Source of the DNA: Lingula anatina
Taxonomy: Eukaryota > Animalia > Brachiopoda
Reading direction: 5' to 3'
NCBI GenBank assembly: GCA_051362555.1
Contig: CM120644.1
Location: 21,102,534 to 21,166,533 of the forward strand
Length of the DNA stretch: 64,000 bases
Positions 2,776-59,922 of this stretch are shown piece by piece. The position numbers and the translations under genes are program-made. How positions within the stretch are numbered: the stretch's first letter is position 1; the number at the start of each line of letters is the position of its first letter. The notes under the pieces were generated by a model, which searched no databases, was not told where the DNA came from, and saw nothing but the letters and a program-made list of their open reading frames with translations.

Positions 2776-3335
2776 TTTTTGTCAACCTGGACACAGGAGG
2801 AGGGTTAAGAAGACATGTCCTCCTCTATGAAAATGTCTACATGCTGTGTGCATACTTTAAACACTGATCAGTCAGCCGATGTCTCTTTTGGGGAACATTT
2901 TGGTCATTGTCCCTCCCACGCCCCTGAACCTACCCTGAGTGTCAGGGCACAGTAAAGCTAGCTTGTTAACTATTCATACCTTGTCATGGGATCGCTTTAC
3001 TGGTTTTGCTGATATGGGTTATATATGAAATCAAGATCGAGATGGCAAAACTGAAATCTAGAACCTAGGGTACCTGAACCCTTCCCAGCCACTTTTATTA
3101 TAGTGAAAATGTTTTATCTACTTGCACGTAGTGTGACGTTTTGTTACATATTGGTCCTCTTTCTTGTTATCTATTACCTCCCGTGATATAAAGGGCAATC
3201 TATACGCTACTTCCTAACTTGCAATTTGGTTACTAGATACATACTGGTGCATTTGGCAGTGATAAAAGAGATGAGGGAAGCCGGTGTGTTAGTTGCGACT
3301 CAATTGCCTTCCTCATAACGTCCTTCCTCATAAGA

Positions 3336-4739
3336 GCCAGGCTCTTCACAAAGTGCTTACATTCCTGTAGCATGGAAGAACGCCAACATGATCATAATGT
3401 TCAAAAAGGGCAATAGGAACGACATCAAGAATTACAGACCCATCTGCCTACTTTCTAATTTGTACAAGATTTACACCAAGATATTGACCGAAAGGCTAAC
3501 AAGACAACTAGATGAAGCGCAGCCAAAGGAACAAGCAGGTTTCAGAGGCCAGTACACCACTACTGATCATATGCACACTGTCAACCAGCTCAAAGAGAAA
3601 TGTCTCGAGTATAACATTCCACTATGTGTAGCATTCGTTGATTATGAAAAAGCCTTCGACTCAGTAGAAACCCAGTATATACTTGCATCCCTGCAAGATC
3701 TAGGGATCGAAGATGGATACGTAGACGTCCTCAGAGACATATACACCGATAGCTCTGTAACAGTCAAACTACACAAGACCACCAATAAGATCAGGATCAA
3801 GAAAGGTGTACGCCAAGGAGATACAATCTCTCCTAAACTGTTCACAGCAGCATTGGAACGTATATTCAGGGATCTAGACTGGCAGGACAAGGGCATAAAC
3901 ATAGACGGTACCAGGCTCAATCACCTTAGGTTTGCAGACGACATCATAATAGTAGCAGATGATGCAAAAGACCTCGAAGAAATGCTACAGGCGTTAGCAG
4001 ATGAAAGCGCAAAAAGTGGGCTAAAGATGAACACCAGCAAGACAAAGGTGATGTTTGGACCACTAACCATCCCTTGCACAGTGAAGGTCAACACCAAAGA
4101 GATAGAAGCAGTAGAAGAGTATATATACCTTGGGCAACGGTTCAGCCTTAGTGATCGAACACTGGAGAAAGAAATCCAACGAAGGATAAAAGCAGGATGG
4201 GCAGCATATGGGAAACACAATGACATCTTCAAGAGCCACCTTCCTACCTGCCTGAAAAAGAAAGTGTTCAATGCTTGTGTGCTGCCGGCAATCACCTATG
4301 GTTCAGAGACCTGGGCACTGAATGCCTCCATGGAACACAAGCTTCAAGTAGCTCAGAGAAAGATGGAAAGAATTATGTTGAACATCAATCCAAGAGAGCG
4401 GAAAACGAATGCATGGTTACGTGAACAGACCAAAGTTAAGGACGTACTGCTCACAGTTAAAGAAATGAAATGGAGGTGGGCAGGACATGTCAAAAGAATG
4501 AAGGACAATAGGTGGACAATCAGGCTTACAGAATGGACCCCAAGGTATGGACAAAGAAAAAGAGGAAGGCCGGTCAAACGATGGAGGGATGAATTAGATG
4601 ACTACTGGAAGTCTTGGAAGAAGAAACCTTGGCCAAACTGGAAATCTGAGGCTCAGGATAGGAAACAATGGAAAAAGCATGCTGAGGCCTTTGTCCAACA
4701 GTGGAACACTATAGGCTCTAAATGATGATGATGATGATG
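3336..4739 (+). mobile_element. 5'-truncated RTE-clade non-LTR retrotransposon (LINE)
   Basis: RT ORF, (ATG)n microsatellite tail at 4722-4739, and an 8-bp target-site duplication ATAACGTC at 3315-3322 and 4740-4747. Upstream residues ARLFTKCL..IPVAWKNA belong to the same RT linker. Confidence 0.92.
3388..4725 (+). CDS. RTE-type reverse transcriptase (C-terminal part of ORF2; endonuclease domain lost)
   Basis: 445-aa open frame with NYRPICLL, EQAGFR, FVDYEKAFDS, GVRQGDTISP, LRFADD, YIYLG, and the RTE C-terminal motifs WRWAGHV and RKRGRPVKRW. Confidence 0.93.
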   Translation: MIIMFKKGNRNDIKNYRPICLLSNLYKIYTKILTERLTRQLDEAQPKEQAGFRGQYTTTDHMHTVNQLKEKCLEYNIPLCVAFVDYEKAFDSVETQYILASLQDLGIEDGYVDVLRDIYTDSSVTVKLHKTTNKIRIKKGVRQGDTISPKLFTAALERIFRDLDWQDKGINIDGTRLNHLRFADDIIIVADDAKDLEEMLQALADESAKSGLKMNTSKTKVMFGPLTIPCTVKVNTKEIEAVEEYIYLGQRFSLSDRTLEKEIQRRIKAGWAAYGKHNDIFKSHLPTCLKKKVFNACVLPAITYGSETWALNASMEHKLQVAQRKMERIMLNINPRERKTNAWLREQTKVKDVLLTVKEMKWRWAGHVKRMKDNRWTIRLTEWTPRYGQRKRGRPVKRWRDELDDYWKSWKKKPWPNWKSEAQDRKQWKKHAEAFVQQWNTIGSK

Positions 4740-10976: not shown

Positions 10977-12560
10977 TCATGTAGTTTTCAGTTTCCTTCT
11001 AAAAAGTAAAGGCCGCAGTACTCTCTTGGACAACTTATACACAAACACAGCCATGAGAACTACAGCAAGAATACCACTGAAAGCAAGCATAGCCATGACG
11101 ACGGCGACATCCAGTAAGAAATACTGGACCCAGTTCAGTCTGTAAGCTGCTTGTGAGTGAAAGTGACCCGAGCCATTGTGGTGTATGACATAGTTTATCC
11201 AATATAACAGTTCATCTTGTCCAGACATGGGGGTGTCTTTGAGGAGCTCTGAGAGCTTAACTGCATTTTCCTTGAACACTTTATTCTCCAGAACACTGTG
11301 TATGGCCATCTCCAGGATGTCCTCAGTCAAGGAACTAAAGGCCAGCCTCACTCCCACCCCAGCCCTGTCTGTTAGTGTTCTGGCGTGGTGATGCTGGTCA
11401 AACAGCAGAGGAATGGCCACCACAGGGACAGCATGGTACAGCGTCTCCCATGTACTGCTCACTCCACAGTGGCTGATGAACAGTCTGGTGGCAGGATGGG
11501 CCAGGAGGTCATTCTGGGGGAACCATTCTACCAGGTGGGTATTCCTGCCCAGGGATTTGGGAGGCGTTCCCTTGTAGCGCCACAGAACCTTCTGGGGAAG
11601 TTTGGCAAATACTCTGGCAAAAAGTTCTGCTTTTTCTTCAAGCATGGTTGGAACCAAGGTACCAAAGCTCATGAGAACAATGCCGTGATCAGCCCAGGAG
11701 ACCAGGTCACTGTAATACTGAGACAGAGGTTGGGGTGGTGTCCACAGGAGACCAGGGATGGGTTTGACATGAGGCATGACAGGGCACGGGTAATTAAAAG
11801 CAAAATGGACATTGGCTGCAATGACCAGCGAAACACGTTCAAAAGCATGTCGCATGTGGGGCCAGTTCTCATTGGGAAAATATTCCCATCGTTTTCTCTC
11901 TAAAGCTTCTATTTTGTCATTCATCCACTTTGAACCTTCCCAGTGATCATATATGTTTTGAATTCGTTCCCAGAAAGTCATGTGATCTGACAGGCCATCT
12001 AAAGGAAACGGCATGTAAGAGTAGAAGACAGGCTGGTGGAAGACCCACCACGAGTTCCAGAACCCATAGTTAGAGTAGACAATGGACGGCACCTGTAAGT
12101 ATTCATTCAGGAATATCCCTGGACCATAGTTTACAAAATCAAAGAAATAGAGGGAGAAGTTTTCCTGTTTCAGACTTTGAATTAAGGTTTGGTCTCCAAA
12201 TAAAGCATCACACAGGGTAAACTCCATGATGTCTGTGTCTCTGAGGAGAGGGATGGCCGGCTGGTCAATGTAGCTGAGAGCAGTGGTCAAGTCCAGCTCT
12301 CCACCTTGGTTGATCCACACCTCCGGCATTTTGTACCGAATCAAACGCACACCATCTATATTCCTGCTTGGCTGGTAATGGTCACTGACCAACATACTGA
12401 CAGAATGATTATTGTCCCTTAGCAAGATGGCAATTTTCTCTATATTCATGGTTCTAGAGTTAAATATCTGTGAGAATGGGAAAAGAAGTATTTTCTCTCC
12501 CTTACAAATATTTAACATTACAGTCAACAAAGCCATATAAATGTGTGCCTTGATGTCCAT
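10977..12560 (-). CDS. UDP-glucuronosyl/glycosyltransferase (GT1, animal UGT type), intronless CDS, 527 aa
   Basis: Open frame from ATG 12560 (MDIKAHIYMALLTV, signal peptide). Contains the UGT signature WFPQNDLLAHPATRLFISHCGVSSTWETLYHAVPVVAIPLLFDQ, LNWVQYFLLDV before a C-terminal TM helix, and a KxKxx-type ER-retention tail (KLKTT). The ORF-track start at 12596 is a GTG and is less likely. Confidence 0.96.
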   Translation of the reverse strand: MDIKAHIYMALLTVMLNICKGEKILLFPFSQIFNSRTMNIEKIAILLRDNNHSVSMLVSDHYQPSRNIDGVRLIRYKMPEVWINQGGELDLTTALSYIDQPAIPLLRDTDIMEFTLCDALFGDQTLIQSLKQENFSLYFFDFVNYGPGIFLNEYLQVPSIVYSNYGFWNSWWVFHQPVFYSYMPFPLDGLSDHMTFWERIQNIYDHWEGSKWMNDKIEALERKRWEYFPNENWPHMRHAFERVSLVIAANVHFAFNYPCPVMPHVKPIPGLLWTPPQPLSQYYSDLVSWADHGIVLMSFGTLVPTMLEEKAELFARVFAKLPQKVLWRYKGTPPKSLGRNTHLVEWFPQNDLLAHPATRLFISHCGVSSTWETLYHAVPVVAIPLLFDQHHHARTLTDRAGVGVRLAFSSLTEDILEMAIHSVLENKVFKENAVKLSELLKDTPMSGQDELLYWINYVIHHNGSGHFHSQAAYRLNWVQYFLLDVAVVMAMLAFSGILAVVLMAVFVYKLSKRVLRPLLFRRKLKTT

Positions 12561-13431
12561 AGTGCAGTATATGGTCCATCCAGGTAAATGAACCACTTCA
12601 GTGCTTCTAATTTACAGTGTCAGCTCCTCTTTCACATCAGTGTTAGCTTATATCCCTCTTTAGATAACAAGATAAGGTCAATATAGGTCACACTGGGGTA
12701 GCGATATGTTCAGGCTGGATGTACGGGGGACTGGGTCAGGTTACAGAGATTGTGGGGTGAATCACAGTACTATGTATACAGTGTATATACATGTACTACT
12801 GCCTGATGATGGCTTTGGAATATCAGTTATTTCAGGAGGAGATCTGTTGCTACAGATATTTACTACAGAAATGGTGATTATGAGCTAAACATGATTATTA
12901 TTGTGATTATGAGCAAAAAAGGATAAAACTGAGATCACTAATATGATTACACACACATTATGATTTTGATATCTTTCTACATGTCATTTGGTAACCATTT
13001 CAGAGAACTGTTTAATAACATTAACAACTGCAGAAGCATGTACTGTTTCAACAAAAATGAAGTTCACACACACTGGTAACAAGCTATAATTTTAAATGCA
13101 TACAAATTGTTTTAATTGAAATACATTGGTTTACAACAACAACAAAAGACACCATTCAGTTCTAGTGATCAGTATTGTCTTACATAGAGAAAAATATGTT
13201 TTTAATGAGCATACTTCACAAACTTAGTGTTTTTTATTTTACATCTGTGACAACAAAACTATAAAACACGTAATTTACTGAAGAATTTAGATAAGTTGTT
13301 GACCAACCCACAAAGGAACCCCCACAAATCTTCCTTGACTACCTTAACTTCCAGGCAGTGTCAGTTTCAACCTAATTCTTCTCCCAGTATTCTCTCCCTT
13401 TATCACATGCATATACATGTAGTACCTGACA

Positions 13432-13614: not shown

Positions 13615-14660
13615 ATATCCAGCAGAACTTACCTTCTGTGGCTTGACTGGGGGTCCCTGGTCTGTGAGCAGTTTCACCAAATGTGCCTTGTCCTAAAAAC
13701 CATAGGAAATCCTATATGTATTCAACTGTAGCAGTATAGTTACCTGTATTGACATTTCCAAATTTTCACATTAAAACTGATCTTTTCTTTAATTTCATTA
13801 TCTTGTCAATACCCTCTGTTTATACCATTAATACATGGAACATCATTTACAAAAATGATAAAAGGACTGGGAGCCCTGCTCAAATAATATTAATAATAAT
13901 AATAATAATAACGCTAGTGAAATTACAGTGAATGCAAGCAGCCATGTACTTGGTTCTGCAAACAATTGTTCTAAAATTGTACATGTGGTCAGTTATTTCT
14001 GTGTCAGCAAATATTATATGAAGTGCTTATCATTATGAATTACATAACTGTTTAGGAGACAAAAAATATTTCTCAATTGTTCAGGACAAAATCATTCATT
14101 TAATATGTAAAAAAACACAGATACATACACGTACACCAACTTTGTGTTGTCAGAGAAATTTTGCATTTCTAAATTGATGGTGCAAATATTTGAATAGTGA
14201 CCCAGTTGTACCTAAAATCCTTCATTATATAGCCCTGAAACCAAATGCAATCCAAAGCAACTATCTTAACAAGATTTATGATCATCAAAATGAGAATCTA
14301 AGTATGACATATAAAAGAAACAAAATTAATGGAGTGCACAACTGAGCCATATCATAAGGTACTGAGTCACGATAATGAAAAATGTTACCAACCTTGGACT
14401 TTTTGAAAAATTCATTTTTCAGTAACTGTTTTGCTGTTGGTCTGGAAAAGAAAAACATTATGTGTTAGACCAGCCCATGGGCACATACTGTACATGTATT
14501 TTCAAATCAGTATTAGGACCACTCTTGTAAATACGACCTTCAATTTGTAACAATTACATGTAAATGCAACATCATGAAAAATATAATTTAAAGATGTTAA
14601 TCAAAAAGAACTAATATATTACTTGTTTTTGCAGGCAATGCATATATTTACACTGAATCC

Positions 14661-15078
14661 CTTTACTACACTCATCTGTAACCTTCTCAGTACATTTTAC
14701 CATCACTTTTGTACTTAGTTTCTTCACTGCACTCATCTGTAACCTTCTCAGTACATTTTACCATCATTTTTGTACTTAGTTTCTTTACTACACTCATCTG
14801 TAACCTTCTCAGTACATTTTACCATCACTTTTGTACTTAGTTTCTTTACTGCACTCATCTGTAACCTTCTCAGTACATTTTACCATCCCTTTTGTACTTA
14901 GTTTCTTTACTGCACTCATCTGTAACCTTCTCAGTACATTTTACCATCATTTTTGTACTTAGTTTCTTTACTACACTCATCTGTAACCTTCTCAGTACAT
15001 TTTACCATCACTTTTGTACTTAGTTTCTTTACTGCACTCATCTGTAACCTTCTCAGCACATTTTACCATCACTTTTAT
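14661..15078. repeat. 61-bp intronic minisatellite, ~7 copies
   Basis: Unit CTTTACTACACTCATCTGTAACCTTCTCAGTACATTTTACCATCACTTTTGTACTTAGTTT recurs every 61 bp. Confidence 0.95.
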
Positions 15079-15288
15079 GCTTATAGTTCCTGCCTTTAAT
15101 AAAAGAGCACTGTGACTTATAAATGATTCAGAGCTAATAATTATACTCAAAGTTGACAGTTTTACCTTTTCTCTGGCTCCTTTTTAAAGCACTCAGCTAT
15201 CATCTTGCGAAATAGTTTGCCATATAGTTTTTATACGGGTCCTTGTCCTCAGCTGCTGAGTCTATGTTGGGCGGCTCATTCTGCAGGG

Positions 15289-18200
15289 TCAGCATTAAAA
15301 CCTACACACAACTTTCAGATCAAAACATCAGCATTAAACCCTACACACAACATTGGATCAAAACATCAGCATTAAACCCTACACACAACTTTCAGATCAA
15401 AACATCAGCATTAAAACCTACACACAACATTCAGATCAAAACATCAGCATTAAAACCTACACACAACATTGGATCAAAACATCAGCATTAAAACCTACAC
15501 ACAACATTGGATCAAATATCAGCATTAAAACCTACACACAACATTCACATCAAAACATCAGCATTAAAACCTACACACAACATTAGATCAAAACATCAGC
15601 ATTAAAACCTACACACAACATTCAGATCAAAACATCAGCATTAAAACCTACACACAACATTGGATCAAAACATCAGCATTAAAACCTACACACAACATTC
15701 AGATCAAAACATCAGCATTAAAACCTACACACAACATTGGATCAAAACATCAGCATTAAAACCTACACACAACATTGGATCAAATATCAGCATTAAAACC
15801 TACACACAACATTCACATCAAAACATCAGCATTAAAACCTACACACAACATTAGATCAAAACATCAGCATTAAAACCTACACACAACATTGGATCAAATA
15901 TCAGCATTAAAACCTACACACAACATTCACATCAAAACATCAGCATTAAAACCTACACACAACATTGGATCAAATATCAGCATTAAAACCTACACACAAC
16001 ATTCAAATCAAAACATCAGCATTAAAACCTACACACAACATTGGATCAAAACATCAGCATTAAACCCTACACACAACATTCACATCAAAACATCAGCATT
16101 AAAACCTACACACAACATTCAGATCAAAACATCAGCATTAAAACCTACACACAACATTGGATCAAATATCAGCATTAAAACCTACACACAACATTCACAT
16201 CAAAACATCAGCATTAAAACCTACACACAACATTGGATCAAAACATCAGCATTAAAACCTACACACAACATTGGATCAAAACATCAGCATTAAAACCTAC
16301 ACACAACATTCACATCAAAACATCAGCATTAAAACCTACACACAACATTGGATCAAAGCATCAGCATTTAAACCTACACACAACATTCACATCAAAACAT
16401 CAGCATTAAAACCTACACACAACATTGGATCAAATATCAGCATTAAAACCTACACACAACATTGGATCAAAACATCAGCATTAAACCCTACACACAACAT
16501 TCACATCAAAACATCAGCATTAAAACCTACACACAACATTGGATCAAATATCAGCATTAAAACCTACACACAACATTCACATCAAAACATCAGCATTAAA
16601 ACCTACACACAACATTGGATCAAAACATCAGCATTAAACCCTACACACAACATTCACATCAAAACATCAGCATTAAAACCTACACACAACATTCACATCA
16701 AAACATCAGCATTAAAACCTACACACAACATTGGATCAAATATCAGCATTAAAACCTACACAAAACATTCACATCAAAACATCAGCATTAAAACCTACAC
16801 ACAACATTGGATCAAAACATCAGCATTAAAACCTACACACAACATTGGATCAAATATCAGCATTAAAACCTACACACAACATTGGATCAAAACATCAGCA
16901 TTAAAACCTACACACAACATTGGATCAAAACATCAGCATTAAACCCTACACACAACATTCACATCAAAACATCAGCATTAAAACCTACACACAACATTCA
17001 CATCAAAACATCAGCATTAAAACCTACACACAACATTGGATCAAAACATCAGCATTAAAACCTACACACAACATTCAGATCAAAACATCAGCATTAAAAC
17101 CTACACACAACATTGGATCAAAACATCAGCATTTAAACTTACACACAACATTCAGATCAAAACATCAGCATTAAAACCTACACACAACATTGGATCAAAG
17201 CATCAGCATTTAAACCTACACACAACATTCAGATCAAAACATCAGCATTAAAACCTACACACAACATTGGATCAAAACATCAGCATTAAAACCTACACAC
17301 AACATTCACATCAAAACATCAGCATTAAAACCTACACACAACATTCAGATCAAAACATCAGCATTAAAACCTACACACAACATTGGATCAAATATCAGCA
17401 TTAAAATCTACACACAACATTCGAATAAAAACATCAGCATTAAACCCTACACACAACATTCACATCAAAACATCAGCATTAAAACCTACACACAACATTC
17501 ACATCAAAACATCAGCATTAAAACCTACACACAACATTCACATCAAAACATCAGCATTAAAACCTACACACAACATTGGATCAAATATCAGCATTAAAAC
17601 CTACACACAACATTCACATCAAAACATCAGCATTAAAACCTACACACAACATTCAGATCAAAACATCAGCATTAAAACCTACACACAACATTGGATCAAA
17701 GCATCAGCATTTAAACCTACACACAACATTCAGATCAAAACATCAGCATTAAAACCTACACACAACATTGGATCAAAACATCAGCATTAAAACCTACACA
17801 CAACATTCACATCAAAACATCAGCATTAAAACCTACACACAACATTCAGATCAAAACATCAGCATTAAAACCTACACACAACATTGGATCAAATATCAGC
17901 ATTAAAATCTACACACAACATTCGAATAAAAACATCAGCATTAAACCCTACACACAACATTCACATCAAAACATCAGCATTAAAACCTACACACAACATT
18001 CACATCAAAACATCAGCATTAAAACCTACACACAACATTCACATCAAAACATCAGCATTAAAACCTACACACAACATTGGATCAAATATCAGCATTAAAA
18101 CCTACACACAACATTCACATCAAAACATCAGCATTAAAACCTACACACAACATTGGATCAAAACATCAGCATTAAACCCTACACACAACATTCACATTAA

Positions 18201-21200
18201 AACATCAGCATTAAACCCTACACACAACATTCACATTAAAACATCAGCATTAAAACCTACACACAACATTCAGATCAAAACATCAGCATTAAAACCTACA
18301 CACAACATTCACATCAAAACATCAGCATTAAAACCTACACACAACATTGGATCAAAACATCAGCATTAAAACCTACACACAACATTGGATCAAAACATCA
18401 GCATTAAACCCTACACACAACATTCACATCAAAACATCAGCATTAAAACCTACACACAACATTCACATCAAAACATCAGCATTAAAACCTACACACAACA
18501 TTGGATCAAATATCAGCATTAGAACCTACACACAACATTCACATCAAAACATCAGCATTAAAACCTACACACAACATTGGATCAAAACATCAGCATTAAA
18601 CCCTACACACAACATTCACATCAAAACATCAGCATTAAAACCTACACACAACATTCAGATCAAAACATCAGCATTAAAACCTACACACAACATTGGATCA
18701 AATATCAGCATTAAAACCTACACACAACATTCACATCAAAACATCAGCATTAAAACCTACACACAACATTGGATCAAAACATCAGCATTAAAACCTACAC
18801 ACAACATTGGATCAAATATCAGCATTAAAACCTACACACAACATTCACATCAAAACATCAGCATTAAAACCTACACACAACATTGGATCAAAACATCAGC
18901 ATTAAAACCTACACACAACATTGGATCAAAACATCAGCATTAAAACCTACACACAACATTGGATCAAATATCAGCATTAAAACCTACACACAACATTGGA
19001 TCAAAATATCAGCATTAAACCCTACACACAACATTCACATTAAAACATCAGCATTAAAACCTACACACAACATTCACATCAAAACATCAGCATTAAAACC
19101 TACACACAACATTGGATCAAAACATCAGCATTAAAACCTACACACAACATTGGATCAAAACATCAGCATTAAAACCTACACACAACATTGGATCAAATAT
19201 CAGCATTAAAACCTACACACAACATTGGATCAAAACATCAGCATTAAACCCTACACACAACATTCACATTAAAACATCAGCATTAAACCCTACACACAAC
19301 ATTCACATTAAAACATCAGCATTAAAACCTACACACAACATTCAGATCAAAACATCAGCATTCAAACCTACACACAACATTGGATCAAATATCAGCATTA
19401 AAACCTACACACAACATTCACATCAAAACATCAGCATTAAAACCTACACACAACATTGGATCAAAACATCAGCATTAAATCCTACACACAACATTCACAT
19501 CAAAACATCAGCATTAAAACCTACACACAACATTCACATCAAAACATCAGCATTAAAACCTACACACAACATTGGATCAAATATCAGCATTAAAACCTAC
19601 ACACAACATTCACATCAAAACATCAGCATTAAAACCTACACACAACATTGGATCAAAACATCAGCATTAAACCCTACACACAACATTCAGATCAAAACAT
19701 CAGCATTAAAACCTACACACAACATTCAGATCAAAACATCAGCATTAAAACCTACACACAACATTGGATCAAATATCAGCATTAAAACCTACACACAACA
19801 TTCACATCAAAACATCAGCATTAAAACCTACACACAACATTGGATCAAAACATCAGCATTAAAACCTACACACAACATTGGATCAAATATCAGCATTAAA
19901 ACCTACACACAACATTCACATCAAAACATCAGCATTAAAACCTACACACAACATTGGATCAAAACATCAGCATTAAAACCTACACACAACATTGGATCAA
20001 AACATCAGCATTAAAACCTACACACAACATTGGATCAAATATCAGCATTAAAACCTACACACAACATTGGATCAAAATATCAGCATTAAAACCTACACAC
20101 AACATTGGATCAAAACATCAGCATTAAAACCTACACACAACATTGGATCAAAACATCAGCATTAAACCCTACACACAACATTCACATCAAAACATCAGCA
20201 TTAAAACCTACACACAACATTCACATAAAAACATCAGCATTAAAACCTACACACAACATTTGATCAAATTATCAGCATTAAAACCTATACACAACATTCA
20301 GATCAAAACATCAGCATTAAAACCTACACACAACATTGGATCAAAACATCAGCATTTAAACTTACACACAACATTCAGATCAAAACATCAGCATTAAAAC
20401 CTACACACAACATTGGATCAAAACATCAGCATTAAAACCTACACACAACATTGGATCAAAACATCAGCATTTAAACCTACACACAACATTCAGATCAAAA
20501 CATCAGCATTAAAACCTACACACAACATTGGATCAAATATCAGCATTAAAATCTACACACAACATTCACATCAAAACATCAGCATTAAACCCTACACACA
20601 ACATTCACATCAAAACATCAGCATTAAAACCTACACACAACATTGGATCAAATATCAGCATTAAAATCTACACACAACATTCACATCAAAACATCAGCAT
20701 TAAAACCTACACACAACAATGGATCAAATATCAGCATTAAAACCTACACACAACATTCACATCAAAACATCAGCATTAAAACCTACACACAACATTGGAT
20801 CAAAACATCAGCATTAAACCCTACACACAACATTCACATCAAAACATCAGCATTAAACCCTACACACAACATTCACATCAAAACATCAGCATTAAAACCT
20901 ACACACAACATTCAGATCAAAACATCAGCATTAAAACCTACACACAACATTGGATCAAATATCAGCATTAAAACCTACACACAACATTGGATCAAAACAT
21001 CAGCATTAAAACCTACACACAACATTCACATCAAAACATCAGCATTAAAACCTACACACAACATTGGATCAAAACATCAGCATTTAAACCTACACACAAC
21101 ATTCACATCAAAACATCAGCATTAAAACCTACACACAACATTCACATCAAAACATCAGCATTAAAACCTACACACAACATTGGATCAAAACATCAGCATT

Positions 21201-21676
21201 AAAACCTACACACAACATTCACATCAAAACATCAGCATTAAAACCTACACACAACATTGGATCAAAACATCAGCATTTAAACCTACACACAACATTGGAT
21301 CAAAACATCAGCATTTAAACCTACACACAACATTGGATCAAAATATCAGCATTAAAACCTACATACAACATTCAGATAAAAAAATCAGCATTAAAACCTA
21401 CACACAACATTGGAACAAAATATCAGCATTAAAACCTACACACAACATTGGATCAAAACATCAGCATTAAAACCTACACACAACTTTCAGATCAAAAAAT
21501 CAGCATTAAAACCTACACACAACATTGGATCAAAATATCAGCATTAAAACCTACACACAATGTTCAGATCAAAACATCAGCATTAAAACCTACACACAAC
21601 ATTTGGATCAAAACATATATATATATATTGAAAACCTACACACAATGTTCACATCAGAACATCAGCATTAAAACCT
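15289..21676 (-). repeat. 6.4-kb tandem array of 37-39-bp units (~165 copies) derived from the kinase splice-acceptor/exon start
   Basis: Plus-strand unit CATCAGCATTAAAACCTACACACAACATT(CAG/CAC/GG)ATCAAAA. On the minus strand it reads ...TGTGTGTAG|GTTTTAATGCTGA, and the last copy runs straight into the kinase exon VLMLTLQNEPP. Confidence 0.97.
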
Positions 21677-22313
21677 GAGCGAAAGAGGAAAGTCAGAAAA
21701 GAATTTTACACAGCGAGCAACAAGAAAGGTAAGCCAAGGAATATGGTTGTATTCTAAATATGTTTTTTATCCCACCCACCCCTTCTCATACTCAATACTT
21801 TTCACACCCTCTTTTGCGCCTATTGCGCTTTTAGACATTCCACTGCCTAAATCATTGGGTGGCGCTTTTAAAAATTTCCCACCTTTAATAATTATGTAGA
21901 GTATGTATCACAGACATCTCGCCGTGTACAGATTTCTCTTTCAGAACTTATCATGGAGCAGTTGGGCCCCTAGGCCCATGGTATGTCGGTATGCATTTCA
22001 CAATCTGTTACACTCCGCTCTTTTACTCCTTTTCATAAAATTTTTAGGGTGACTCCCGTAAACGCCCAACATAAATACATAATTATTAAACATAGCAAAT
22101 AATTTTACTTTTCAAATATATTGAATTTATAAATAATGTCAAGGAGAGATCCTAAGACAGAAGTACATATATTTGTTATCATTTATTGATAACAAATATA
22201 TGTTATCATTTATTGATAAATAATTGCTTCTAGAATGAGAGTTGTTTCTAAAGGAAATCATAGTGTGTACATTTTCAAAGTTAACAGATTTTAACTACAC
22301 AAAAAATTTCTAG

Positions 22314-24703: not shown

Positions 24704-25747
24704 GAGGGAGCCTACCTCCTTCACACAGCTGCATCACCACCCACAGTTCATCTTTGACCACAAATGAAGTGTAATAAGACACCACATTCTCGTGATGACA
24801 CTGGCTCATGGCTTGAATTTCTATCTACAAATAAAACAAAACAATTAAAAATGAACAATCTCCACACTGCTAAATTATCCCTGACTAGTCCTAACAGTTT
24901 TGGGATAACAATACAGGATAACTGGCATAAATATAGACACCTTAGACAAAAAATCCTGAATGATCCTGCAAACAATCTGATCATGTTGGTTTTTTTTTTT
25001 TTTTTTTTAACCTGCATATTTATTTTATTATTAAAAGCACTTAGGTTGGTAGATTTTAAGTAAAACAAAAGTGCAGTAAAAAACATGCACTTCTAGCGTG
25101 AAAGTTGCATAAATGAATAAGAATTAAAAAAAACAAAGAAGAAACAAAAACCTTCAAACCTTAAAACTAGACAGCAAAGCTGGCAAATATACAGACACCG
25201 TACAAGAGACAAGTATTTATCGTTAATGTCAAGCAATCATGCCAATTTTCAAAAGCAGCCTGCCTCATTACCAAACAAAGCCACTCAGTAAATTTAAAGT
25301 AAAACAAAAATATGGCTTGGCAGTTATGGAACGAACAAAATATAGGGTACATACTAAAAAGCTGATTATACAGTCTTTTGAACTCAACTTGCTGTTTGAC
25401 TTAAGAAAAGCTGTAAATTTATAATTAATAAATTGGCTGAAAAATGAAACACATTCCATGGTTAAAACTGGAAATGTATTTCAGACTAACTGAGACAAAT
25501 CCAGGGTTTTGCAAGGGTGATGGTGGGGAGATATACTACATGTAGTAGACAGGTGTTTGCCTCACTTTGAAACTGAAGATGTTAAATGCAGTAGGCTGAA
25601 GATGAGGCTGCCATGAACTCACCAGAAGCTCCACAGTGGTGCTGGCCTTCTCCAGGTTGATCCTCTTGAAGGCACATTTCTAGTTCTTTGGTGTACACAG
25701 GGCAGCCTGTACCACAGCAGTGTCCAGTCTGGGCAAAATTTGATTAT

Positions 25748-25808
25748 ATATATCACTAAACTACAGCAGTAGCCCCAGCACCTACAGAACAGAGATTATA
25801 TAGGGCCT

Positions 25809-25877
<69 letters not shown>

Positions 25878-26001
25878 TATATTATATCACTAAACCCCCG
25901 CACCTACAGGAGAACAGAGATCATATATGTATTACATATACTAAACTACAGCTGTGACCCCAGCACCTACAGGTAACAGAGACCATTCATATCACTAAAC
26001 C
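25748..26001 (-). repeat. Three or four diverged tandem copies of the kinase exon acceptor region, with a (TA)n run
   Basis: TATCACTAAAC(TACAGC..)CCCCAGCACCTACAG..AACAGAGA recurs at ~25750, ~25885 and ~25940, plus a partial copy at ~25990. Confidence 0.8.
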
Positions 26002-26068
26002 AGTCAATCGGCCTGCCATTTATGTGTCGGGTCTTCCGCCATATTGCCAAGGAGAGCCACATGCAAAC

Positions 26069-41694: not shown

Positions 41695-44600
41695 ATGGGT
41701 TGTTGTTATCACAATATCTGACTATGTCCTAAATCCTGCCAAATATCGTGTACTGTACACATGGATAAGACATAGTGCTGCTCTTGGTGCTGTCTTTCAC
41801 TGCCTTCTATTTCATGGTAAGGGTACTCTGGAAAAAGAACAATATAACTGAAAGAACTGAAAATTACATTGAAAAGACTGTCAAATTCAATGACTTAAAA
41901 TAGTTAAACGTTTATATTTTTGTCAAATCTGGTCTAATATTTCTGAAATTTGTACAAATGATGCTGAACAACAATAAAAATATGTGATAAGCTGATCAGT
42001 TAACTGTATCTAATGAAAAGTGTTTTTTAGGACAATATATTTGGGAAAACTGAAAATAACATTGATAAGACTGGGAAATCGCAGGACTTAAAATAGTTAA
42101 ACGCTAATAATTCTGTCAAAAATGTTCCAATATTTCTGAAATTTGTACAAATGATTTTTAACAACAATAAAAATCTGTGATAAGCTGATCAGTTTACTGT
42201 ATCTGATGAAAAGTGTTTTTGAGGACAATATATTTGGGCAAACTGAAAATTACATTGAAAAGACTGGCAAATTCAATGACATAAAATAGTTAAATGTTAA
42301 TAATTTTGTGAAATCTGGTCTAATATTTCTGAAATTTGTACAAATGATGCTAAACAACAATAGAAATCAGTGATAAGCTGATCACTTGACTGTGACTAAT
42401 GAAAAGTATTGTCTTCTGATGATATATTTGAGAAAACTGAATGTTACACTGAAAATTAACACTGCAAAATTCCATGACTGAAAATAGTTAAACGCTAATA
42501 ATTTTGTCAAAAATGTTCCAATATTTCTGAAATGTGTACAAATGATGCTTAACAACAATAAAAATCTGTGATAAGCTGATCAGTTGACTGTATCTAATGA
42601 AAAGTATTTTTAAGATAATATATTTCGGACAACTATAAAATTACATTGAAAAGACTGGGAAATTGCAGGCCTTTAAATAGTTAAACGCTAATAATTCTGT
42701 CAAAAATGGTCCAATATTTCTGAAATTTGTACAAATGATGCTTAACAACAATAAAAATATGTGATAAGCTGATCAGTTGACTGTATTTAATGAAAAGTGT
42801 TTTTGAGGACAATATATTTCACACAATTAAAAAATTACATTGGTAAGACTGGGAAATTGCAGGCCTTAAAATAGTTAAACGCTAATAATTTTTTCAAAAA
42901 TGTTCCAATATTTCTGAAATTTGTACAAATGATGCTTAACAACAATAAAAATCTGTGTTTGTGTTGGAAGTTGCAAGTTACCTAAACTGTCAACTGGAAA
43001 ACAACATATACCCATAAATGACTTCTCCTTACTACCAATGCCAGATGCAGTTTACTCCTTACCATGGGATTCCGGAAGGGGTTGTTGTTATCACAATATC
43101 TGACAATGTCCTAAATCCTGCCAAATATAGTGCACTGTACACATGGATAAGACATAGTGCTGCTCTTGGTGCTGTCTTTCACTGACTTCTTTTTCATGGT
43201 AAGGGTACTCTGGAAAAAGAACAATATAACTGAAAGAACTGAAAATTACATTGAAAAGACTGGCAAATTCAATGACTTAAAATAGTTAAACGTTAATAAT
43301 TTTGTGAAATCTGGTCTAATATTTCTGAAATTTGTACAAAAGATGCTTAACAACAATAAAAATCTGTGATAAGCTGATCAGTTGACTGTGACTAATGAAA
43401 AGTGTTTTTAAGGACAATATATTTGAGAAAACTGAAAATTACATAGATAAGACTGGGAAATCATAGGACTTAAAATAGTTAAATGTTAATAATTTTGTCA
43501 AATCTTGTCCAATGTTTCTGAAATTAGTACAAATGATGCTTAACAACAATAAAAATTTGTGATAAGCTGATCAGTTGACTGTGACTAATGAAAAGTTTTT
43601 TTTAGAACAATATATTTCGGACAACTAAAAAATTACATTGAAAAGATTGGGAAATTGCGGGACTTAAAATAGTTTAACGTTAATAATTTTGTCAAATCTA
43701 GTCCAATTTTTCTGAAATTTGTGCAAATGAAGCTAAATAACAATTAAAATCTGTGATAAGCTGATCAGTTGACTTTGACTAATGAAAAGTATTGTCTTTG
43801 GTTGATATATTTGAGAAAAGAGAATGTTACACTGAAAATTAACACTGCAAAATTCCATGACTGAAAATAGTTAAACGCTAATAATTTTGTCAAAAATGTT
43901 CCAATAAATCTGAAATTTGTACAAATGATGCTTAACAACAATAAAAATCTGTGATAAGCTGATCGGTTGTCTGTGTCGTTTTGTTATGGTAAAGTTAATG
44001 GGAAATTGATCATCAGAAGAGTGAGAATTAACTGAAACAAATATTTCAATATTGCAATGTATTATTTACTCTGAGGGATAACAGCAAATGTGATGATTTG
44101 AGGTTGTTTGTGTTGGAAGTTGCAAGTTACCTAAACTGTCATCTGGAAAACAATATATACCCATAAATGACTTCTCCTTACTACCAATGCCAGATGCAGA
44201 TTACTCCTTACAATGGGATTCTGGAAGGGGTTGTTGTTATCACAACATCTGACAATGTCCTAAATCCTGCCAAATATAGTGCACTGTACACATGGATGAG
44301 ATATAGTGCTGCTCTTGGTGCTGTCTTTCACTGCCTTCTTTTTTCATGGTAAGAGTACTCTGGAAAAAGAACAACATAAATGAAAGAACTGAAAATTTAC
44401 ATTGAAAAGACCGGCAAATTCAATGACTTAAAATAGTTAAACGCTAATAATTTTGTGAAACATGTTCCAATATTTCTGAAATTTGTACAAATGATGCTTA
44501 ACAACAATAGAAATCTGTGAAAAGCTGATCAGTTGACTGTGACTAATGAAAAGTGTTTTTAATGACAATATATTTGGGCAAACTGAAAATTACATTGAAA

Positions 44601-47600
44601 AGACTAGCAAATTCAATGACTTAAAATAGTTAAACGTTAATAATTTTGTGAAATCTGGTCTAATATTTCTGAAATTTGAACAAATGATGCTTAACAACAA
44701 TAGAAATCTGTGATAAGCTGATCAGTTGACTGTATCTAATGAAAAGTGTTTTTAAGATAATATATTTCGGACAACTATAAAATTACATTGAAAAGACTGG
44801 GAAATTCAATGACTTAAAATAGTTAAACGCTAATAATTTTGTCAAAAATGGTCCAATATTTCTGAAATTTGTACAAATGATGCTTAACAACAATAAAAAT
44901 CTGTGATAAGCTGATCAGTTGACTGTGACTAATGTAAAGTTTTTTTTTAGGACAATATATTTCGGACAACTATAAAATTACATTGAAAAGACTGGGAAAT
45001 TCAATGACTTAAAATAGTTAAACGCTAATAATTTTTTCAAAAATGGTTCAATATTTCTGAAATTTGTGCAAATGATGCTTAACAACAATAAAAATCTGTG
45101 ATAAGCTGATCGGTTGTCTGTGTTGTTTTGTTATGGTAAAGTTAATGGGAAATTGATCATCAGAAGAGTGAGAATTAACTGAAACAAATATTTCAATATT
45201 GCAATGTATTATTTACTCTGAGGGATAACAGCAAATGTGATGATTTGAGGTTGTTTGTGTTGGAAGTTGCAAGTTACCTAAACTGTCATCTGGAAAACAA
45301 TATATACCCATAAATGACTTCTCCTTACTACCAATGCCATATGCAGATTTCTCCTTACAATGGGATTCTGGGAGGGGTTGTTGTTATCACAATATCTGAC
45401 AATGTCCTAAATCTTGCCTAATATCGTGTACTGTACACATGGATAAGACATAGTGCTGCTCTTGGTGCTGTCTTTCACTGCCTTCTTTTTTCATGGTAAG
45501 AGTACTCTGGAAAAAGAACAACATAAATGAAAGAACTGAAAATTTACATTGAAAAGACTGGCAAATTCAATGACTTAAAATAGTTAAACGCTAATTATTT
45601 TGTCAAACATGTTCCAATATTTCTGAAATTTGTACAAATGATGCTTAACAACAATAGAAATCTGTGATAAACTGATCAGTTGACTGTATCTAATGAAAAG
45701 TGTTTTTAAGATAATATATTTCGGACAACTATAAAATTACATTGAAAAGACTGGGAAATTGCAGGCCTTAAAATAGTTAAACGCTAATAATTTTGTCAAA
45801 AATGGTCCAATATTTCTGAAATTTGTACAAATTATGCTTAACAACAATAAAAATCTGTGAAAAGCTGATCAGTTGACTGTGACTAATGGAAAGTTTTTTT
45901 TTAGGACAATATATTTTGGACAACAAAAAAAATTACATTGAAAAGATTGGGAAATCGCGGGATTAAAATAGTTAAACGTTAATAATTTTTTCAAAAATGT
46001 TCCAATATTCCTGAAATTTGTACAAATGATGCTTAACAACAATAAAAATCTATGATGAGCTGATCAGTTGACTGTGACTAATGAAAAGTGTTTTTAATGA
46101 CAATATATTTGGGCAAACTGAAAATTACATTGAAAAGACTAGCAAATTCAATGACTTAAAATAGTTAAACGTTAATAATTTTGTGAAATCTGGTCTAATA
46201 TTTCTGAAATTTGTACAAATGATGCTTAACAACAATAGAAATCTGTGATAAGCTGATCAGTTGACTGTATCTAATGAAAAGTGTTTTTAAGATAATATAT
46301 TTCGGACAACTATAAAATTACATTGAAAAGACTGGGAAATTCAATGACTTAAAATAGTTAAACGCTAATAATTTTGTCAAATCTAGTCCAATTTTTCTGA
46401 AATTTGTGCAAATGAAGCTTAATAACAATAAAAATCTGTGATAAGCTGATTAGTTGACTGTATCCAATGAAAAGTTTTTTTTAGGACAATATATTTTGGA
46501 CAACTAAAAAATTACATTGAAAAGATTGAGAAATCACGGGACTTAAAATAGTTAAATGTTAATAATTTTGTCAAATCTAGTCCAATTTTTCTGAAATTTG
46601 TGCAAATGAAGCTAAATAACAATAAAAATCTGTGATAAGCTGATTAGTTGACTGTATCCAATGAAAAGTTTTTTTAGGACAATATATTTCGGACAACTAA
46701 AAAATTACATTGAAAAGATTGAGAAATTACGGGACATAAAATAGTTAAATGTTAATAATTTTGACAAATCTAGTCCAATTTTTCTGAAATTTGTGCAAAT
46801 GAAGCTAAATAACAATTAAAATCTTTGATAAGCTGATCAGTTGACTGTATCTAATGAAAAGTATTGTCTTCGGATGATATATTTGAGAAAAGAGAATGTT
46901 ACACTGAAAATTTACACTGCAAAATTCCATGACTGAAAATAGTTAAACGCTAATAATTTTGTCAAAAATGTTCCAATATTTCTGAAATCTGTACAAATGA
47001 TGCTTAACAACAATAAAAATATGTTATAAGCTGATCAGTTGTCTGTGTTGTTTTGTTATGATAAAGTTAATGGGAAATTGATCATCAGAAGAGTGAGAAT
47101 TAACCAAAACAAATATTTCAATATTGCAATGTACATACGTATTATTTACTCTGAGAGAAAACAGCAAATGTGATGATTTGAGGTTGTTTGTGTTGGAAGT
47201 TGCAAGTTACCTAAACTGTCATCTGGAAAACAATATATACCCATAAATGACTTCTTCTTACTACCAATGCCATATGCAGATTACTCCTTACAATGGAATT
47301 CTGGAAGGGGTTGTTGTTATCACAATATCTGACAATGTACTAAATCTTGCCTAATATCGTGTACTGTACACATGGATAAGACAAAGTGCTGCTCTTGGTG
47401 CTGTCTTTCACTGCCTGCTTTTTCATGGTAAGGGTACTCTGGAAAAAGAACCATATAACTGAAAGAACTGAAAATTACATTGAAATGACTCACAAATTCA
47501 ATGACTTAAAATAGTTAAACGCTAATAATTTTGTCAAACATGTTCCAATATTTCTGAAATTTGAACAAATGATGCTTAACAACAATAAAAATCTGTGATA

Positions 47601-50600
47601 AGCTGATCAGTTGACTGTATCTAATGAAAAGTTTTGTTTTAGGACAATATATTTCTGACAACAAAAAAATTACATTGAAAAGATTGAGAAATCACGGGAC
47701 TTAAAATAGTTAAATGTTAATAATTTTGACAAATCTAGTCCAATTTTTCTGAAATTTGTGCAAATGAAGCTAAATAACAATTAAAATCTGTGATAAGCTG
47801 ATCAGTTGACTGTTTCTAATGAAAAGTATTGTCTTCGGATGATATATTTGAGAAAAGAGAATGTTACACTGAAAATTAACACTGCAAAATTCCATGACTG
47901 AAAATAGTTAAACGCTAATAATTTTGTCAAAAATGTTCCAATATTTCTGAAATTTGTACAAATGATGCTTAACAACAATAAAAATCTGTGATAAGCTGAT
48001 CGGTTGTCTGTGTTGTTTTGTTGTGGTAAAGTTAATGGGAAATTGATCATCAGAAGAGTGAGAATTAACCAAAACAAATATTTCAATATTGCAATGTACA
48101 TACGTATTATTTACTCTGAGAGAAAACAGCAAATGTGATGATTTGAGGTTGTTTGTGTTGGAAGTTGCAAGTTACCTAAACTGTCATCTGGAAAACAATA
48201 TATACCCATAAATGACTTCTTCTTACTACCAATGCCATATGCAGATTACTCCTTACAATGGAATTCTGGAAGGGGTTGTTGTTATCACAATATCTGACAA
48301 TGTACTAAATCTTGCCTAATATCGTGTACTGTACACATGGATAAGACAAAGTGCTGCTCTTGGTGCTGTCTTTCACTGCCTGCTTTTTCATGGTAAGGGT
48401 ACTCTGGAAAAAGAACCATATAACTGAAAGAACTGAAAATTACATTGAAATGACTCACAAATTCAATGACTTAAAATAGTTAAACGCTAATAATTTTGTC
48501 AAACATGTTCCAATATTTCTGAAATTTGAACAAATGATGCTTAACAACAATAAAAATCTGTGATAAGCTGATCAGTTGACTGTATCTAATGAAAAGTTTT
48601 GTTTTAGGACAATATATTTCCGACAACAAAAAAATTACATTGAAAAGATTGGGAAATCGCAGGACTTAAAATAGTTAAACGTTAATAATTTTGTCAAATC
48701 TAGTCCAATATTTCTGAAATTTGTGCAAATGATGCTTAACAAAAATAAAAATCTGTGATAAGCTGATCAGTTGACTGTGACTAATTAAAAGTATTGTCTT
48801 TGGATGATATATTTGAGAAAAGAGAATGTTACACTGAAAATTTACACTGCAAAATTCCATGACTGAAAATAGTTAAACGCTAATAATTTTGTCAAAAATG
48901 TTCCAATATTTCTGAAATTTGTACAAATGATGCTTAACAACAATAAAAATCTGTGATAAGCTGATCGGTTGTCTGTGTTGTTTTGTTGTGGTAAAGTTAA
49001 TGGGAAATTGATCATCAGAAGAGTGAGAATTAACCAAAACAAATATTTCAATATTGCAATGTACATACGTATTATTTACTCTGAGAGAAAACAGCAAATG
49101 TGATGATTTGAGGTTGTTTGTGTTGGAAGTTGCAAGTTACCTAAACTGTCATCTGGAAAACAATATATACCCATAAATGACTTCTCCTTACTACCAATGC
49201 CATATGCAGTTTACTCCTTACAATGGGATTCTGGGAGGGGTTGTTGTTATCACAATATCTGACAATGTCCTAAATCTTGCCTAATATCGTGTACTGTACA
49301 CATGGATAAGATATAGTGCTGCTCTTGGTGCTGTCTTTCACTGCCTTCTTTTTTCATGGTAAGAGTACTCTGGAAAAAGAACAACATAAATGAAAGAACT
49401 GAAAATTTACATTGAAAAGACCAGCAAATTCAATGACTTAAAATAGTTAAACGCTAATAATTTTGTCAAACATGTTCCAATATTTCTGAAATTTGAACAA
49501 ATGATGCTTAACAACAATAAAAATCTGTGATAAGCTGATCAGTTGACTGTATCTAATGAAAAGTTTTGTTTTAGGACAATATATTTCCGACAACAAAAAA
49601 ATTACATTGAAAAGATTGGGAAATCGCAGGACTTTAAATAGTTAAACGTTAATAATTTTGTCAAATCTAGTCCAATATTTCTGAAATTTGTGCAAATGAT
49701 GCTTAACAAAAATAAAAATCTGTGATAAGCTGATCAGTTGACTGTGACTAATTAAAAGTATTGTCTTTGGATGATATATTTGAGAAAAGAGAATGTTACA
49801 CTGAAAATTTACACTGCAAAATTCCATGACTGAAAATAGTTAAACGCTAATAATTTTGTCAAAAATGTTCCAATATTTCTGAAATTTGTACAAATGATGC
49901 TTAACAACAATAAAAATCTGTGATAAGCTGATCAGTTGACTGTGTTGTTTTGTTGTGGTAAAGTTAATGGGAAATTGATCATCAGAAGAGTGAGAATTAA
50001 CCAAAACAAATATTTCAATATTGCAATGTACATACGTATTATTTACTCTGAGAGAAAACAGCAAATGTGATGATTTGAGGTTGTTTGTGTTGGAAGTTGC
50101 AAGTTACCTAAACTGTCATCTGGAAAACAATATATACCCATAAATGACTTCTCCTTACTACCAATGCCATATGCAGTTTACTCCTTACAATGGGATTCTG
50201 GGAGGGGTTGTTGTTATCACAATATCTGACAATGTCCTAAATCTTGCCTAATATCGTGTACTGTACACATGGATAAGATATAGTGCTGCTCTTGGTGCTG
50301 TCTTTCACTGCCTTCTTTTTTCATGGTAAGAGTACTCTGGAAAAAGAACAACATAAATGAAAGAACTGAAAATTTACATTGAAAAGACCGGCAAATTCAA
50401 TGACTTAAAATAGTTAAACGTTAATACATACCACGGGGCTGATATCAAAACAAAAGAATTGCAGGGGCCGATACAATGAATGAGACGGAGTGACTGCCAC
50501 GTGCGGAAGATGGGCAGGAAATCGGCCAACTACTCTGAAAACCACTAACGCAAACGAAGATGATTGGACGGTGACCGTAATTAGGCAGTAAACGCGGGGA

Positions 50601-51945: not shown

Positions 51946-52590
51946 ATGGACAACGTTAAAGAATGAACCAATCTAAAATATAGAAAAAGCATATACCAAT
52001 GACACAAGATCGAGAGGCATGGTGATCCATGACAGCCAACCTGCTGAGAGTGGGTGGCACCCTATGTTGATTATTGTATCCGAATTGATAAACTGTATCA
52101 TTATTTTATGCTCTTTGTCTGTACATCTGCCTTCTTTGAAAATGCACATATTTATTTTTTGGTTTCTTTGAATTTTGCAATCTTTGAGTCATTTTCTCCC
52201 TGTGTCAGACAGGCAATAATAGTCCTCTACTATCTGTTAAACAGAATTGATCATTTGAATATATATATATATCACGGAGAATAAAGTTGATACACTATGG
52301 AAAAGTGCTCTTGCCATGGTGATGGACCATTGGGAGCTAGTATCGAAAGACAAGGAACCGAACAAATTAGTCTGTTCTCTCCATTTTAATTTCAAAAGTT
52401 CCTACAGCTGTTTCGGCCCGGAGGGGCACAAACAGATCACAATACAAAATTGCTGACCGGCTGTAATTAAGCAGCATTACAGATTCAAAAATTCACTAAA
52501 ATATGTAAAGATCCAGAGAACAATGTGATCTACGTGAGAAGATTTGATAAATGAAATTCATGTTGTTATCTAAAAATCTTGAAAATTATT

Positions 52591-52968
52591 CTGGAGTCAT
52601 TATGTTCCATTGTGGCAGTATAGTCCTGTGCCTCCTAGTACAGTGTAGTAGTCTGGAGTCATTGTGTTCCATTGTGGCAGTATAGTCCCGTGCCTCCTAG
52701 TACAGTGTAGTAGTCTGGAGTCATTGCGTTCCATTGTGGCAGTATAGTCCCGTGCCTCCTAGTACAGTGTAGTAGTCTGGAGTCATTGCGTTCCATTGTG
52801 GCAGTATAGTCCCGTGCCTCCTAGTACAGTGTAGTAGTCTGGAGTCATTGCGTTCCATTGTGGCAGTATAGGCCTCTGCCTCCTAGTACAGTGTAGTAGT
52901 CTGGAGTCATTGCGTTCCATTGTGTCAGTATAGTCCCGTGCCTCCTGGTACAGTGTAGTGTGGAGTCA
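52591..52968. repeat. 62-bp minisatellite, 6 copies
   Basis: Unit CTGGAGTCATTGCGTTCCATTGTGGCAGTATAGTCCCGTGCCTCCTAGTACAGTGTAGTAGT. Confidence 0.95.
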
Positions 52969-59500: not shown

Positions 59501-59922
59501 AAATTGATAATATTAAACTGAATAATAATATTTGCAAATGTCAATTTTAAGTTTCTTGTTTTATAGCACTGTGAGTTCAGCATATAAAATAAGTTCAGTC
59601 TTTTCAAATTCATGGGTTTTTAATTTTAATTCAAAGGCACATATTGCGCGTTACACCTTTACCAAGAAAATAACATCCTGAGAAATTCAACAATTTCACT
59701 TTATCCCCAAAGCACACTCTTATCCAACACCATTGACAAAAGTATGACACATAAAATTTGATAAAAAATCTGGTTGTTATATGTCGTACTCCATTACGTC
59801 TCAGTGTGGTTTACAATAGATAAGAAAACTTTGTCGTGTTGTAAATTTCAAATTTTTGCCGCCGTGAGTGAAATTGGCCATTCACTATTTTTCATTATGA
59901 GAGAGACTTGCTAGAAATAAGT

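Follow-up and report, generated by a model that had tools for sequence, protein, structure and literature searches.

Probable mirage minisatellite of about 166 tandem 3' splice sites at an OSR1/SPAK kinase locus of Lingula anatina

The window, by which we mean the whole 64,000-nt stretch of Lingula anatina DNA analysed here, carries an incomplete copy of a kinase gene of the OSR1/SPAK (OXSR1/STK39) type, which matches L. anatina OSR1 and, among PDB entries, both SPAK and OSR1 (Table 1). Exons 3, 9 and 10 of this copy are 97-100% identical to P0002. Ahead of the kinase exon that precedes exon 9, numbered 8 here after its vertebrate counterpart, lies a long tandem array of short units. Between exon 3 and this array no match in the window was found to residues ~94-230, the catalytic core, and no exons after exon 10 were found within the window; a complete catalytic domain (HRD, DFG, APE) in open frame is absent from the copy. 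Because residues ~94-230 are missing, exon 2 contains a stop and exon 8 is frameshifted, the window copy is a pseudogene, as an earlier sequence-only reading had already suspected from the 2-bp insertion in exon 8.

Table 1. Positions in the window of the array, the surrounding OSR1/SPAK exons and the upstream repeat.
Feature	Position	Strand	Description
Exon 10	13633..13692	-	identical to P0002
Exon 9	14393..14441	-	17/17 residues the same as P0002
OSR1/SPAK exon VLMLTLQN...EPEK	15166..15301	-	2-bp insertion at 15222; Q>P and L>F changes
Last unit	15302..15340	-	mRNA is spliced to its AG; identical unit before the expressed-type exon in DNA run X3
Array (probable mirage minisatellite)	15302..21674	-	166 units of 37-46 nt (unit parsing)
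Dispersed multi-copy repeat, cut off	21679..22133		transposon-like; gives the apparent first acceptor's pyrimidine tract
Exon 3	24716..24824	-	frame open, 97% identical to P0002 residues 59-96
Broken exon 2	25623..26003	-	stop codon, one codon missing, start apart from body

At 15289-21676 of the assembled window, TRF reports a tandem repeat with a period of 39 and 166.4 copies, and parsing resolves it into units of 39 nt (n = 84), 38 nt (n = 54), 37 nt (n = 27) and 46 nt (n = 1), which bears out the 6.4-kb array of ~165 tandem 3' splice sites described by the sequence-only reading. The same reading was right that the unit consists of an acceptor plus an exon start: 13-14 nt from the start of the kinase exon are followed by ~25 nt of intron 3' end closing in TGTGTAG, with the exact exon 13-mer opening 129 of the 166 units and an AG ending 164. 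The CTRAY motif that it had placed upstream of a usually sole AG occurs in 165/166 units (25-27 nt before the unit end in 164/166), and exactly one AG is present in 161/166. Its view that the frame is restored at the last acceptor alone holds as well: none of the 166 upstream acceptors opens a frame into the kinase exon, 99 of them reading VLMLMF followed by a stop. The last unit meets the authentic exon boundary at 15301, and from its acceptor the sequence reads VLMLTLQNEPP, which matches SPAK/OSR1 structures. No further occurrence of the 15-nt match between unit and exon was found within the window. Units come in 33 distinct variants, the order of which is non-random, and an identical run of 12 unit types recurs (maximum 8 and mean 4.3 in 200 shuffles), a pattern that block duplication would produce.

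The upstream end of the array is of a different nature from what had been proposed. The acceptor at 21674 had been regarded as native, and its pyrimidine tract is supplied by the dispersed repeat, whose depth is several-fold to tens-fold above that of the contig joining flank and array. Among the matches listed, the flanks of this repeat are mixed at 22133, and other copies run past 21679 into unrelated sequence; no terminal inverted repeats bounding 21679-22133 were found. The junction between flank and array itself was found in one of three DNA runs (X1, depth 88, 0 differences). Four RNA reads of X10 that aligned to the upstream flank, 90-95% alike, probably stem from other copies of the dispersed repeat. 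The possibility that the first acceptor is an orphaned exon 4 acceptor left by a microhomology deletion was rejected, the flank being dispersed repeat and no contig reaching exon 4 being present among the matches listed.

Five of 19 sequencing runs were used (X1, X2, X3, X10 and X13), and contigs assembled from them demonstrate presence, not absence. Record 13 of X3 (182 nt, depth 41.6) spans 15164-15340 and continues from the exon through a full unit; it carries the expressed alleles and lacks the 2-bp insertion, and its six other letters are the six listed exon differences. Record 4 of X1 (depth 251) likewise bridges the exon into the unit over 15224-15338. The sequence-only reading had suggested counting the units at this junction in the intact gene, and this is answered in part: the unit is present before the expressed-type exon, with at least one full extra unit bridged in the X1 and X3 contigs. 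The array had also been described as an expansion inside the exon; since the unit precedes the expressed-type exon in X3, it lies instead in the intron ahead of it. No contig joining the exon to non-unit DNA occurs among the matches listed for the DNA runs, and among those matches the unit borders only on further units, on the exon and on two array starts. One of these starts, an X3 contig (depth 25.2) whose assignment to the working gene is uncertain, consists of unique DNA followed by part of a unit end of the intron type, the arrangement that a native TGTGTAG acceptor would predict. Two exon types are present in X1, at depths 144 and 91, and the array starts differ between X1 and X3. The depth summed over units reaches a maximum of 25,020 in X1 and 2,130 in X3, with exon depths of 251 and 42-70, giving unit-to-exon ratios of ~100 and 30-50, respectively, where depth is not copy number. 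Many units exist in both runs, and most of them could sit in a dead copy.

Of the array, one unit and the first unit's 25 nt at the upstream junction served as mapping targets, so that RNA junctions to internal or first acceptors would show only indirectly; some 6% of each run was read and depth is low, the runs are not described as nascent, and poly(A) RNA conceals targets of nonsense-mediated decay (NMD). In X10, 8 of 26 mapped reads splice exon 7 (APYHKFPPMK of P0002) straight to the last acceptor at 15301, which supplies part of the junction evidence that the sequence-only reading had called for, and 14 of 26 link the kinase exon to exon 9. At both 15177 and 15188 every read carries a base other than that of the window (18/18 in X10 and 5/5 in X13). 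Depth on the collapsed unit is 2 in X10 and 0 in X13, compared with ~11 and 2 at the junction. A few sense-strand reads of X10 contain tandem units (a joint that goes back 39, 4 counts, 2 starts), and these could be pre-mRNA or genuine use of an upstream acceptor. In the mRNA sampled, normal splicing is kept in the expressed gene, whose exon is bridged to one extra unit or more.

It is very probable that the array is a mirage minisatellite, likely tolerated as clutter, in which ~39 nt across an intron-exon boundary of Lingula OSR1/SPAK, with the end of the intron and the beginning of the exon, have been repeated head to tail, the expressed gene having the unit and its mRNA using the last acceptor. 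As contigs of the expressed-type exon run into the unit and RNA uses the last acceptor, the repeat as such appears to be tolerated. Growth of the array through slippage or unequal exchange would presumably have begun in the working gene. The last acceptor may win because it is the nearest to the exon's donor, through exon definition, and NMD would clear stray transcripts from upstream acceptors. The window copy, whether a null haplotype or an additional duplicate, may then have lost residues ~94-230 through a rearrangement that also left the repeat fragment against the array, and its frameshift was likely the last event.

There are precedents for boundaries repeated in this manner. Somatic instability has reportedly been seen in one, the mirage of amphioxus Adh3. 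In humans, the CBS insertion 844ins68 duplicates the acceptor of intron 7. The latter is a parallel, with one extra 68-bp copy as opposed to the long Lingula array, judging from the available part of its description (PMC1334203). Amphioxus mirages have been described in Adh3, the globins BflGb6 and BflGb9, troponin C and PGBD5, where, in the available portions of the reports, they leave splicing undisturbed and undergo the concerted turnover that by comparison is shared with the Lingula array (PMC3087553, PMC3902484). As far as those portions go, both have an intron-exon boundary copied head to tail beside the real one, with many splice signals kept and normal mRNA, and BflGb6 has the same polarity of intron 3' end plus 5' part of the exon. 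The Lingula array differs in its 166 units, compared with the 3-7 given there for the globin and PGBD5 mirages, its 164/166 intact AGs, its brachiopod host and the pseudogene status of the sequenced copy. The 37-bp VNTR in intron 7 of human F7 also resembles it, in the accessible text of that study, in unit length, in spanning a junction, in having identical pseudo-sites that can function but stay silent and in use of the site nearest the exon; there, however, the donor is repeated, whereas in Lingula it is the acceptor and a 5'-to-3' scan hits the decoys first (PMC1557585).

On the mirage reading, the array is an unusually long and likely harmless case of a known class, and mirage minisatellites now extend to brachiopods; no mirage report for Lingula was found in the open-access literature. 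With the class already known and a pseudogene as the sequenced copy, its importance is modest. It stands out for its size with nearly all acceptors intact, some 165 decoys in a row. If arrays in working alleles are similarly long, simple scanning from the upstream donor to the first AG cannot account for the outcome, and the locus would be a ready substrate for tests of exon definition versus scanning. A stronger version, which we regard as rather unlikely, is that working OSR1 alleles have length-polymorphic arrays with tens to more than 100 decoy acceptors, intact, identical and each furnished with a branch point, and that leakage cleared by NMD scales with array length. Were this true, the VNTR would adjust the dosage of a kinase that acts in ion balance, and the locus would be the largest natural test bed for the choice of one 3' splice site among identical neighbours.

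The sequence-only reading had offered, as one of two options, that the array was the lesion that inactivated the gene. In this scenario, which we consider quite improbable, an array beyond some length threshold poisoned splicing and killed the window copy, exon loss and point lesions coming later; all 166 upstream acceptors do end in stops, and at neither 15177 nor 15188 does any RNA read show the base of the window. However, the RNA donors may simply be without the window haplotype, the repeat as such is present at expressed-type exons, and the loss of the catalytic exons together with the exon 2 lesions suffices to kill the copy. Moreover, in X3 every exon contig has the expressed alleles and no junction of the window type was seen, yet unit depth in that run is 30-50 times that of the exon. 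Even less credible is that assembly stretched a short array to 6.4 kb, or that the unit is a genome-wide satellite. The ordered unit variants, the excess of unit over exon depth in two independent runs and recovery of the window's upstream junction in X1 without mismatch speak against this alternative, as do the restricted flanks of the unit among the matches listed, which contrast with the mixed flanks of the dispersed repeat at 21679-22133.

The faintest of the alternatives, on which we place almost no weight, takes the AG/GT sites as active, the array being excised unit by unit through recursive splicing or recording intron gain by AG/GT duplication, both of which had been entertained in the sequence-only reading. 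TAG/GTT stands at 138 of the 165 internal junctions, a branch-like motif lies ahead of each AG, and recursive intermediates, being unstable, would escape poly(A) RNA (PMC6110457, available text). The regenerated donor GTTTTA nevertheless matches 0/4 consensus bases at +3 to +6, compared with 2-4 in the gene's five real donors (a simple match count against the donor consensus), which makes ratcheting unlikely, and the AG/GT junction persists in mature mRNA. A 39-nt segment is, besides, probably too short for excision. Recursive sites, or ratchet points, share the AG/GT core within a long intron, but in the available text their segments are nearly all >1 kb and a strong juxtaposed motif is needed, whereas the Lingula sites are spaced at 39 nt and have no donor consensus past the GT (PMC6110457). 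The AGGT model of intron gain likewise involves tandem duplication of an AG/GT-bearing segment, but, as described, it requires duplication of exonic DNA containing AGGT, the first GT becoming the new donor (PMC3443670, PMC2891723). In Lingula a pre-existing acceptor was duplicated: the mRNA joins exon 7 at exactly the junction position of the array and the unit contains intron sequence, so the duplicated segment is not exonic, and as the intron already existed none was gained.

Two smaller observations concern the rest of the gene. The contigs holding the best match of the neighbouring UGT (94% identity) and the intact OSR1 are both 1,613,224 in size, which suggests that the UGT/OSR1 pair is linked there too. 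Ahead of exon 2 in the window copy are three degenerate copies of that exon's own acceptor and exon start, and this tripled acceptor is a second, small mirage.

We show that the array in front of the OSR1/SPAK kinase exon arose when an existing intron end and exon start were duplicated and then amplified, and that the mRNA takes the last copy. The array is a real feature of a known kind, the mirage, named in amphioxus for tandem copies of an intron-exon boundary beside the real one (PMC3087553, PMC3902484); the mirage traits open to testing are present, and its ~165 intact acceptors are notable. As far as the amphioxus accounts go, the polarity is that of BflGb6, which has 3-6 units against 166 here (PMC3087553, PMC3902484). 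In human F7, a VNTR with a 37-bp unit repeats a donor whose copies stay silent (PMC1557585), and CBS 844ins68 gives mostly normal mRNA via an alternative site (PMC1334203), according to the parts of these sources cited. No brachiopod mirage was found in a search of the open-access literature.

TRF finds the array where the sequence-only reading had placed it (15289-21676, period 39, 166.4 copies), and parsing yielded 166 units in 33 variants (84 of 39 nt, 54 of 38, 27 of 37 and 1 of 46). An AG stands at the end of 164/166 units, 161/166 hold exactly one AG, and the CTRAY motif claimed for every unit occurs in 165/166, lying 25-27 nt from the unit end in 164. The CTGAT branch-like motif before each AG comes from the copied exon start. 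Units were said to begin with the 13 nt that start the next exon; the match is exact in 129/166 and inexact in the rest. A block of 12 unit types recurs exactly, against at most 8 in 200 shuffles, all of them exceeded, and hence block duplication accounts for part of the array's growth.

Mirages and the adjoining repeat in the window
Feature	Position	Strand	Basis
Mirage array	15302-21674	-	TRF and unit parsing
Dispersed repeat, unclassified	21679-22133		Depth, mixed flanks, copies running past 21679
Small exon 2 mirage	25735-26003	-	Three degenerate acceptor copies

As proposed, the last acceptor reads VLMLTLQNEPP, in a kinase exon matching SPAK and OSR1 structures, and it alone restores the frame (0/166 upstream acceptors give an open frame into the exon). 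The last unit (15302-15340, minus strand), which gives the used acceptor, is one of only 3/166 that have a second AG ~11 nt upstream of the acceptor. Exon numbers are those of the vertebrate gene. Among 26 placed reads of RNA run X10, exon-7 sequence is joined straight to the array-side exon in 8, and that exon to exon 9 in 14. The bases at 15177 and 15188 differ from the window in 18/18 reads of X10 and 5/5 of a second RNA run, X13, and the 2-bp insertion is absent from 8/11 and 2/2. Since reads of any unit pile onto one collapsed copy, where depth is only 2 (X10) and 0 (X13), a long array can only rarely be retained in mRNA. By exon definition, the last acceptor would win because its distance to the downstream donor, 134-136 nt, is the shortest, and use of an upstream acceptor would run into stops, with the transcript degraded. 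A few sense-strand X10 reads hold units (2 starts); they could be pre-mRNA or come from splicing, now and then, to an upstream acceptor close by, and are the chief result against a wholly harmless repeat.

The window copy of OSR1, in which the array sits, cannot encode the kinase, irrespective of the array. Exon 3 is 97% identical to Lingula anatina OSR1 (P0002/P0003), and whole-protein mapping on the 64 kb gives five pieces only (residues ~19-57, broken, 59-94, 231-275, 275-291 and 292-312). For residues ~94-230, the part with HRD, DFG and APE, neither the 3 kb that separates exon 3 from the array nor the rest of the 64-kb window gave a match; the first exon and all beyond residue 312 were not found in the window and may lie outside. 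This loss of catalytic residues, an exon 2 with a stop codon, one codon lost and a disrupted start, and the previously noted 2-bp insertion in the array-side exon make the copy a pseudogene, as had been suspected. That the array was the inactivating lesion is unlikely: the copy is dead, but the repeat as such does not conflict with normal splicing and the other lesions suffice. The copy may represent a null haplotype or, alternatively, an additional duplicate of the gene. DNA run X1 holds two exon types (depths 144 and 91); the second, window-like type has three bases in common with the window and lacks the insertion, so that the frameshift probably arose after the array, or else is a private error.

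Clearance of the array by recursive splicing is unlikely, because the regenerated donor matches 0/4 consensus bases at +3 to +6, versus 2-4 in five real donors (plain match count), and recursive sites, in the cited part of the source, require a strong juxtaposed motif, with segments nearly all >1 kb (PMC6110457). Intron gain by AGGT duplication is inapplicable, since that model, as the sources excerpted present it, concerns exonic segments (PMC3443670, PMC2891723), whereas here an existing intron end and exon start were copied.

The first acceptor, at 21674, had been called native; comparison of 21650-22160 with DNA runs X1, X2 and X3 and with X10 shows instead a chimeric junction, because its strong pyrimidine tract is part of a truncated dispersed repeat (depth 246-1,833, 326-5,908 and 135-2,044 in X1, X2 and X3). 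Among the matches listed, the repeat borders on varied sequence at 22133, and in X1 and X2 there are copies that run past 21679 into one common unrelated sequence. The repeat-array junction occurs in 1/3 DNA runs (X1, depth 88, zero differences), which supports the assembly at the array's upstream end. No terminal inverted repeats were found in the dispersed repeat, whose left end holds, on the plus strand, a purine-rich exon-like stretch ending in a GTAAG donor near 21725. An orphaned exon-4 acceptor as first acceptor is unsupported by contigs among the matches listed, which cannot prove absence.

The exon plus one unit was also compared with X1, X3, X10 and X13. In both X1 and X3 the contig across the exon start continues into the repeat unit. 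Record 13 of X3, which is free of the insertion and has the alleles seen in RNA, spans the exon and a full unit; the expressed-type gene therefore carries at least two acceptors in tandem. The proposed unit count at the junction of an intact gene thus stands at one extra unit or more. Many units are present in both animals, summed unit depth, which is not a copy number, peaking at 25,020 (X1) and 2,130 (X3) beside exon depths of 251 and 42-70. One X3 contig, of uncertain tie to the working gene, shows an array start in which unique DNA gives way to a partial unit end of intron type, as predicted by duplication across a native TGTGTAG acceptor. It is improbable, as a joint reading, that working OSR1 alleles bear tens to >100 decoy acceptors with leakage scaling with unit count.

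The exon 2 acceptor and exon start of the same copy occur in three degenerate copies, one broken by an (AT)n run, which form a second, small mirage, so the duplication process hit this gene at least twice.

A 61-bp tandem repeat (14661-15083, 6.9 copies, 95% matches) starts ~80 nt into the intron after the array-side exon; raised depth in X1 and X3 backs it, and no exon edge was noticed inside. Just past exon 10 and in the same orientation lies an intronless open UDP-glucuronosyltransferase frame (10977-12611, minus) with 94% identity to its best match, P0123, which is apparently on one contig with intact OSR1. A 463-aa open frame with a YADD-like FADD motif (3334-4725, plus) is what we take to be a look-alike of non-LTR retrotransposon reverse transcriptase. 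A large degenerate satellite of 193-195-bp units occupies 41839-49943, and further arrays lie at 52590-52959 (62-bp) and 59915-60152 (92-bp).
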